Assembly (NCBI RefSeq): GCF_050920415.1
Contig: NZ_CP169309.1
From: Escherichia coli
GTDB taxonomy: Bacteria; Pseudomonadota; Gammaproteobacteria; Enterobacterales; Enterobacteriaceae
Length of the DNA stretch: 64,000 bases
Direction: 5' to 3' (one strand)
In this document: positions 17,415 to 17,726 of the stretch, one piece after another
Layout of the letters: each line of letters opens with the position of its first letter
How positions within the stretch are numbered: position 1 is the first letter of the stretch
Notes under the pieces: model-generated
The model's database searches: none
What the model was told of the DNA's origin: nothing
What the model saw: the letters and a program-made list of their open reading frames with translations, nothing else
Translations under genes and position numbers: made by a program

Positions 17415-17726
17415 GATCTTTAAATATAACGCCCGGATATTTGGCTGCACATAATCCTGCATGAAGGAAGTTGTATTAAATATCTCGCCTGCTGTGAAAT
17501 ATTTCCCATCCACAAAATGAGCGATTTTTGATAGCACCTTGCTATTGCGCGTCTAAAATACAATATACATTGTATTATACTTAAACCCATAATTATACAT
17601 AGAGCAATAAAATGATTACCGGGTGTGGTAATGATAAAGATAAGTTTCAGTGTGAAGCTTATCTTTACCCACACCCCCTGATTATTTTAGATTTAGAAGA
17701 ATATTTCACAATTCAAGGATAAAAAT

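Follow-up and report, generated by a model that had tools for sequence, protein, structure and literature searches.

A long imperfect palindrome in the espX6 leader of Escherichia coli as a candidate mutational hot spot

The espX6 locus and its variable segment

A 64-kb stretch of Escherichia coli DNA (64,000 nt, hereafter the window) was analysed around two palindromic elements upstream of a pentapeptide-repeat gene. Based on O157 RefSeq records, this gene was named espX6 (T3SS effector pentapeptide repeat protein), and the gene order around it in the window is mdtM-yjiN-yjiM-yjiL-ytiA ... yjiK-yjiJ-iatD. An earlier note on this DNA had placed the palindromic elements in the AT-rich leader of the pentapeptide-repeat gene and had considered read-through from yjiL. 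Both elements were recovered at their stated positions. An extra gene, ytiA (DUF3343, 17148-17414), is situated between yjiL and the palindrome. The locus comprises:

17359-19952, no strand: variable segment with an alternative ytiA 3' end, the palindrome, espX6 and downstream hairpins; absent from K-12
17727-19784, + strand: espX6, ORF of 685 aa, a pentapeptide-repeat type III effector gene

When the locus is aligned locally to its K-12 counterpart (L003), homology stops at 17358, in the 3' end of ytiA, and restarts at 19953, so that an AT-rich segment of 2.6 kb stands in place of 38 bp of K-12. The flank of the segment was found in 5385 of 5426 complete E. coli genomes, the espX6 segment in only about 639. 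The segment swaps out the last part of ytiA, which thereby receives an alternative C-terminus. The K-12-like ytiA end (CCGCGTTAAGAATTCATTAAG...) recurs after the segment, at 19953, and the left-end sequence GCGTCAACCAGGCAATAAG loosely resembles this copy (regions 17359-17425 and 19953-19996). Judged from the sequence, this likeness at both segment ends hints at an old duplication, or at a deletion between repeats in K-12-type genomes.

The best 120 protein matches to the N-terminal 370 residues of EspX6 were all E. coli EspX6 alleles. No relatives outside E. coli were found in a scan of genome contigs of other species, and no DNA paralogous to espX6 was found within genomes. A literature search for 'ECs5295' and 'EspX6' returned gene-presence lists only. 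The annotated coding sequence ranges from 1974 to 2400 nt across strains. Within it, a tandem 9-nt repeat (ATCTGCAAC-like, at least four copies, 19208-19261) encodes an SATSATSAT stretch, and this region is probably length-variable, since espX6 lengths vary widely among strains. In some strains espX6 is deleted or interrupted by IS1 copies: strain SBF22 (L002) carries an IS1 after ytiA, reaching into a truncated iatD, and strain PT62 (L007) an IS1 about 110 nt into espX6. The gene is frameshifted in E300010. Many metagenome contigs of about 10.5 kb (L136-L172) stop 350-400 nt upstream of the hairpin described below, near the boundary of the core-genome part of ytiA and the variable segment; these ends probably reflect assembly-graph branching between segment-positive and segment-negative strains.

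Just past the espX6 stop codon, 19811-19940 holds the second most extreme GC-corrected structure of the window, with two hairpins, one GC-rich (CCGCCTCATCTATC...GGATGAGGCG) and one terminator-like at 19912-19938 (AAACGCCGC...GCGGCGTTT), the latter with a poor T tract after it. The fold of 19785-19960 reaches -58.6 kcal/mol (z -5.8).

Architecture and folding of the long palindrome

The long imperfect palindrome reported upstream of espX6 is present, and its quoted arms are exact (GGGTGTGGTAATGATAAAGATAAG from 17621, CTTATCTTTACCCACACCC to 17676). It is bigger than first described, a nested hairpin that spans 17608-17689 and ends 37 nt ahead of espX6. Its parts are:

17608-17620, + strand: left arm of the outer A/U-rich stem, TAAAATGATTA (17608-17618) followed by CC; pairs with 17679-17689 in the MFE structure
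17621-17635, + strand: left arm GGGTGTGGTAATGAT, which reads as the reverse complement of a local unit X (ATCATTACCACACCC)
17635-17667, + strand: inner palindrome, TAAAGATAAGTTTCA (17635-17649), loop GTG (17650-17652), TGAAGCTTATCTTTA (17653-17667)
17661-17678, + strand: right arm ATCTTTACCCACACCC (17661-17676) and a C run at 17674-17678; imperfect direct copy of X
17679-17689, + strand: outer-stem right arm TGATTATTTTA, which forms the hairpin's U-rich tail; paired in the MFE structure
17690-17726, + strand: leader with the Shine-Dalgarno sequence AAGGA (17715-17719); outside the hairpin and unpaired in the MFE structure

The unit X, also written AT(C/G)ATTACCACACCC, is the sequence that is found at the deleted ('empty') site of alleles lacking the core. 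Its first 9 nt form a first copy in the outer left arm (ATGATTACC, 17612-17620), and the layout is X(1-9), reverse complement of X, inner 15-bp palindrome, X'. Since X occurs as a partial direct, a full inverted and an imperfect direct copy, the palindrome is a local sequence duplicated in inverted orientation, with the inner palindrome enclosed. The latter is an inverted repeat (I1) with 15-nt arms that are 93% complementary. Around it, a GC-rich stem of 8 bp is formed by GGGTGTGG (17621-17628) and CCACACCC (17669-17676), broken by a bulge. The imperfections of the palindrome consist of an extra TAATGA-type bulge in the left arm and an extra C in the right arm. The outer stem TAAAATGATTA/TGATTATTTTA contains nine Watson-Crick and two G-U pairs, and it is fully paired on the + strand only, because the two G-U pairs exist only there.

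RNA folding on both strands, which had been proposed as a check, gave a very stable structure for 17600-17700, with -38.6 kcal/mol on the + strand (z -9.3; 0/200 shuffles as good) and -30.6 kcal/mol on the - strand (z -6.0). The same region folded as DNA reached -18.6 kcal/mol (z -6.9). Among 6390 overlapping 100-nt windows of the 64 kb, none has a folding energy that is more extreme once GC content is corrected for (z -5.1). The earlier note had held that its proposals would fall if no stable structure were predicted and no transcript ends or protein binding mapped to the region; because the fold is very stable on both strands, this objection does not arise. Neither the Shine-Dalgarno sequence (17715-17719) nor the ATG (17727) is paired; they are located 25-37 nt past the hairpin.

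The stability of the 100-nt leader differs greatly by allele, with -5.4 kcal/mol in the deleted form, about -24 kcal/mol in the O157 type and -49.3 kcal/mol in a perfected form. This spread from -5 to -49 kcal/mol among strains argues against a precisely tuned function, and leaves room for lineage-specific effects on expression.

Further upstream, TGTGAAATATTTCCCA (17493-17508) resembles a CRP site (TGTGA-N6-TCCCA), and its TGTGA half-site varies among alleles. With its first 11 nt it forms a perfect inverted repeat (I2) with AATATTTCACA (17700-17710), located 196 nt downstream in the conserved leader.

Allele diversity

Sixteen distinct alleles were collected from complete genomes and metagenomes, of which 14 are non-deleted; some comparisons were made on 11 alleles. 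Nucleotide diversity (pi) was distributed as follows:

Core-genome part of ytiA: 0.014
Upstream intergenic DNA: 0.047-0.094
Outer left arm: 0.017, nearly invariant
Palindrome core, 17621-17676: 0.145
Outer right arm: 0.030, this arm being also described as invariant in 16/16 alleles
Leader, 17690-17726: 0.029
espX6 coding sequence: 0.060

The core at 17621-17676 is the fastest-changing DNA of the region, and its flanks are the slowest-changing DNA of the island. In the left arm, variants such as GGGTGTTG and GGGTGAGA were found between alleles. The invariance of the outer arms could stem from a promoter or protein site instead of an RNA stem. The inner palindrome is kept in all 14 non-deleted alleles, with scattered changes on one side.

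When the pairs of the window structure were followed on the alignment, no compensatory pairs were found in the 16 alleles (no excess over controls); this missing covariation has little power, because the sampled alleles are closely related. One-sided transitions in the inner stem produced G-U pairs on the + strand in two cases (F8111 and O78_3) and on the - strand in two others (RMDEC465 and O157), and this even split corresponds to the neutral expectation. Pair-breaking transversions are also present in the inner stem.

The positions closing the loop, 17649 and 17653, co-vary by allele group, being either A...T (paired) or T...C (unpaired). The PT62-like background contains both states, for which simple arm-to-arm templating offers no explanation.

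Perfection, deletion and indels

Three kinds of change were observed in the palindrome, and all suggest mutation driven by the hairpin. In the first, the left-arm bulge is changed from TAATGAT to GT, after which the left arm GGGTGTGGGTAAAGATAAG and the right arm are reverse complements without any mismatch (dG -49.3 kcal/mol). This perfected allele is present in a metagenome contig (L150) and in the complete genome E300010, and the downstream backgrounds of the two differ (...AAAAATATGGGCTCCC... versus ...AAAATTATGGACTC...). Perfection of a quasipalindrome in one multi-base step has been published as the signature of template switching during replication in E. coli (PMC7202029), and the change at espX6 agrees with it.

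The second change is a loss of the core:

17621-17670, no strand: 50-nt deletion with identical end points in PCN033 and AR_0077

The junction reads ATTACC|ACACCCCC, and the deletion could equally be written as 17619-17668 because of a CC microhomology. PCN033 and AR_0077 lack the core and carry an intact espX6. Their flanks differ, and each is nearest to filled, near-perfect alleles, with 5 and 10 differences over 680 nt. The near-perfect allele is carried by strains ATCC 11775 and S88. A query with the empty site over 610 records gave AR_0077 as the only single-piece match. Taken with the near-perfect state of the nearest filled alleles, this indicates that the deletions are rare and derived. 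The deletion alleles keep the outer left arm and still form a small hairpin (dG -5.4 kcal/mol, z -3.4).

Third, the right arm has an indel hot spot in its C/CA run, where several lineages carry indels of 1-8 nt (CCCAT-CCCCC, CCCCA--CCCCC and CC----CCCCA). Perfected and deleted alleles were each found in two backgrounds, with two carriers per class; this recurrence could also come from short-patch recombination instead of independent events.

These sequence changes suggest a mechanism in which the arms would fold back during replication. One arm would then serve as the template for the perfection of the other, and the core could be lost by slippage between the direct copies ATGATTACC and ATCTTTACCC when these are brought together by the hairpin. 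The C/CA run would gain and lose bases. The direct and inverted copies of X account for the end points of the deletion.

In our best reading, the palindrome core behaves as a mutational hot spot and not as a constrained regulatory site. The fuller account, to which we give about even credence, is that of a locus-specific, mutationally unstable DNA quasi-palindrome in the conserved, promoter-proximal leader of espX6, which would be remodelled by hairpin-templated replication errors and whose hairpin in the transcript would be dispensable. The leader hairpin may weakly attenuate or insulate. As a whole, the palindrome looks like one of a known kind, an ordinary leader hairpin, and not like a conserved regulatory site or an insertion scar.

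Probable transcription of the leader and possible RNA functions

A promoter search of the intergenic region gave one best site:

17564-17593, + strand: best sigma-70-like match, TATACA-18-CATAAT, 9/12; predicted start near 17600, 8 nt before the hairpin

Sigma-70-like sites occur here at chance density (15 found versus 10.8 expected from shuffles). The -10 element CATAAT is invariant in 11 alleles and the -35 element TATACA is variable. For the 37 nt between hairpin and gene, the only promoter-like layout that might fit is TTTACC (17664-17669), N18, TAGATT (17688-17693), with 8/12 matches and a spacer that varies by up to 4 nt among alleles. Given this variable spacer and the 37 nt of room, a promoter upstream of the hairpin seems more likely. 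With such a promoter, and with possible read-through from ytiA, the hairpin would form part of the espX6 leader RNA.

Transcripts of the + strand would arise by yjiM-yjiL-ytiA read-through or start at an espX6 promoter located upstream of 17608. In them, the long hairpin would have an A-tract on one side and a U-rich tail on the other, and would end 25 nt short of the Shine-Dalgarno sequence. Its most likely role would be that of a leaky attenuator or barrier resembling a terminator, or that of a leader stem, and it would leave the ribosome-binding site free. The basal A/U stem and the downstream leader are conserved and may be of functional weight; the apical core appears dispensable and would evolve near-neutrally.

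Two other leader functions were considered and rejected. An RNA thermometer or translational riboregulator does not fit, as the Shine-Dalgarno sequence and the ATG are not sequestered. A candidate upstream ORF or leader peptide (ATG at 17612, 36 codons, to 17722) has its frame broken by indels of -1, -4, -7 and -50 nt in most alleles.

The earlier note had proposed a transcription terminator that insulates the gene from read-through. In its developed form, a selected intrinsic terminator or insulator would block yjiM-yjiL-ytiA read-through or antisense transcription from the - strand, and espX6 would be transcribed from its own promoter only. The layout agrees with this proposal: the hairpin is the first strong one past the ytiA stop codon at 17414, and the succession of A-tract AATAAAAT, hairpin and U-rich tail TTATTTTAGATTT is that of bidirectional terminators. 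A register in which the stem ends at 17684 and is followed by TTTTAGATTT scores -11.3, near the -8.5 of the hairpin downstream of espX6. However, a consensus terminator scan made no call at the hairpin, and the heuristic score is negative in every register and allele, a score that is poorly calibrated, as the reference hairpin after espX6 is negative too. The U run (17685-17688) lies within the outer stem, 8 nt from the GC-rich stem, where CCACACCC is followed by CCUGAUUAUUUU, and not within the 0-2 nt expected between stem and U-tract; the base of the extended stem consists only of A-U and G-U pairs. Decay among alleles also speaks against a selected terminator. The GC stem with its 3-nt loop belongs to the window allele and is degraded or partly deleted in most others, including the commonest (e.g. 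O157, where the 55-nt core alone reaches about -12 kcal/mol), and the core is gone in two strains with intact espX6. Finally, the 37 nt to the ATG would have to hold a promoter and a 5' UTR, and the candidate -35/-10 spacing there varies by up to 4 nt. What stands of the proposal is its A-tract, hairpin and U-rich tail, and we consider a selected terminator unlikely.

Unlikely as well is a selected 5'-UTR element, in which the promoter at 17564-17593 would produce a 5'-terminal stem-loop that stabilises the espX6 mRNA or serves as an RNase III target. The start predicted near 17600, only 8 nt before the stem, with its invariant -10 element agrees with such an arrangement, as do the G-U pairs of the outer stem, which are possible only on the + strand. 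Within the upstream region of the island, conservation is highest in the basal stem and leader, and the basal stem outlasts the 50-nt deletion. Against this, the promoter call is at chance density with a variable -35 element, covariation is missing from the 16 alleles, and stability differs by 44 kcal/mol among strains.

A further alternative accepts the mutability of the core and gives it a use. The palindrome would then be a hypermutable cis-acting switch (contingency element), in which perfection, decay, deletion and C-run slippage would alter promoter spacing, or hairpin strength from one lineage to another (-5 to -49 kcal/mol), and so tune or silence espX6. If true, espX6 expression would be tuned on short evolutionary time scales. 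We regard this as quite improbable.

Operator reading and the short palindrome

The second element of the earlier note, a shorter palindrome TACAAT-N4-ATTGTA, was also recovered, with TACAAT at 17559-17564, ATAC between and ATTGTA at 17569-17574. In full it extends as follows:

17554-17579, no strand: short palindrome TAAAATACAAT / ATTGTATTATA, 11-nt arms at 17554-17564 and 17569-17579, 91% complementary

A repeat as good as this one occurred in 3.6% of dinucleotide shuffles of 17415-17607, and such repeats are found at 1.8 per kb in the rest of the AT-rich island. At least one pair is broken in 7/11 alleles, without compensation. The short palindrome is weakly unusual and probably due to chance.

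The proposal of a regulator-binding site found no support, and an operator of a dimeric factor (Fur, Ler/H-NS-type or other) on the long or the short palindrome is very unlikely. Dyad symmetry is present, GGTAAT GATAAA GATAAG resembles repeated Fur hexamers with 13/19 matches to the Fur box, and the short palindrome overlaps a promoter-like -35 element. However, 49 sites in the 64-kb window reach at least 13/19 against the Fur box, which places this likeness at chance level, and an extra A in O157-type alleles shifts the hexamer register. The half-sites are not conserved, the arms being the most variable intergenic stretch of the region; arms of 24 nt around a 13-nt centre are not operator-like, and the short palindrome is broken in most of the alleles compared. 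Fur-box and CRP-site readings were both rejected as chance-level matches.

Distribution and the mobile-element reading

A search for the same palindrome at other loci had been suggested. With sensitive blastn, the 91-nt element was found at a single place per genome, always the espX6 locus, in 637 of 5426 E. coli genomes, and nowhere else in them. The plasmid search gave as its sole match a 4.9-Mb chromosome mislabelled as a plasmid, and the phage search gave no copy, its only matches being weak, AT-rich, 43 nt in length and from Prevotella Lak phages. The inner stem was found in 41 metagenome contigs, each of which represents the same espX6 locus. Rfam 15 covariance models, run on 17000-20300 on both strands with E-values up to 1, gave no match. 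The inner-stem pattern AAAGATAAG-N13-CTTATCTTT had at least 120 matches in species-representative genomes. Those listed were all from low-GC organisms and had neither loop nor flanks in common with the espX6 hairpin, so that the pattern is too loose to be informative. With one locus per genome and no plasmid or phage copies, the palindrome is neither REP/ERIC/MITE-like nor a shared effector-promoter motif. A dispersed repeat (REP/BIME, ERIC/IRU, MITE) was ruled out by the absence of multiple copies per genome or across replicons.

The suggestion that the palindrome is the footprint of an insertion, as a mobile-element remnant or miniature (MITE, REP-like, IS end) or a scar of island insertion, is hardly tenable: alleles differ by the presence of a 50-nt core with precise, recurrent end points, which adjoins TTAC(C) motifs, but the palindrome shows the single-locus distribution given above, the inner-stem matches listed from other species share neither loop nor flanks, and it lies about 260 nt inside the edge of 17359-19952 with no related partner repeat at the other end. 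Moreover, the 'inserted' DNA starts with an inverted copy of its own target, which indicates local duplication and not transposition.

Meaning of the palindrome

Read as an unstable quasi-palindrome, the locus offers a clean natural example of quasipalindrome dynamics, in which templated perfection and a precise deletion that recurs can be followed in population genomic data. In addition, it points to the espX6 leader as a possible source of strain differences in effector expression; should the allele classes alter espX6 expression, they would provide a cheap marker for type III effector expression variants. A caution follows as well, namely that a strong intergenic palindrome beside a virulence gene need not be the site of a regulator or the scar of an insertion. 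In practical terms, the value of these findings is modest.

Comparison with known systems

The nle regulatory inverted repeat (NRIR) is mentioned in a review as situated upstream of some non-LEE effector genes (PMC7142665). Like NRIR, the espX6 palindrome is an inverted repeat that precedes a type III effector gene of attaching-and-effacing E. coli. Unlike it, the espX6 palindrome matches no other locus in O157 genomes with those nle genes, while NRIR is described as short and common to several nle promoters.

The espX6 hairpin resembles bidirectional Rho-independent terminators in its GC-rich segment and 3-nt loop, in the A-tract that precedes it and the U-rich tract that follows it, and in its location between two co-oriented transcription units. 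It differs from intrinsic terminators in that the stem is far longer, the U run is set off from the GC-rich stem and the GC stem is unconserved.

Stabilising stem-loops at the 5' terminus (ompA-type) and leader hairpins processed by RNase III are known in enterobacterial mRNAs. As in these, a long helix is located upstream of the ribosome-binding site without overlapping it, and the basal helix is conserved. In contrast to them, the espX6 hairpin is without covariation, and its apical part is dispensable and hypervariable.

Quasipalindrome mutation hot spots of E. coli have been described in thyA and in the lacZ QP5/QP6 reporters, and are explained by the template-switch model of Ripley (PMC7202029). 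Those hot spots were measured by mutation assay, whereas the espX6 events were deduced from natural allele diversity, and the espX6 repeat is intergenic and unusually long (about 34 bp in total). In common with them, it is an imperfect inverted repeat with a stable hairpin in DNA, in more than one background it carries a multi-base change by which one arm has come to complement the other exactly, and it shows deletions between short direct repeats at the base of the hairpin.
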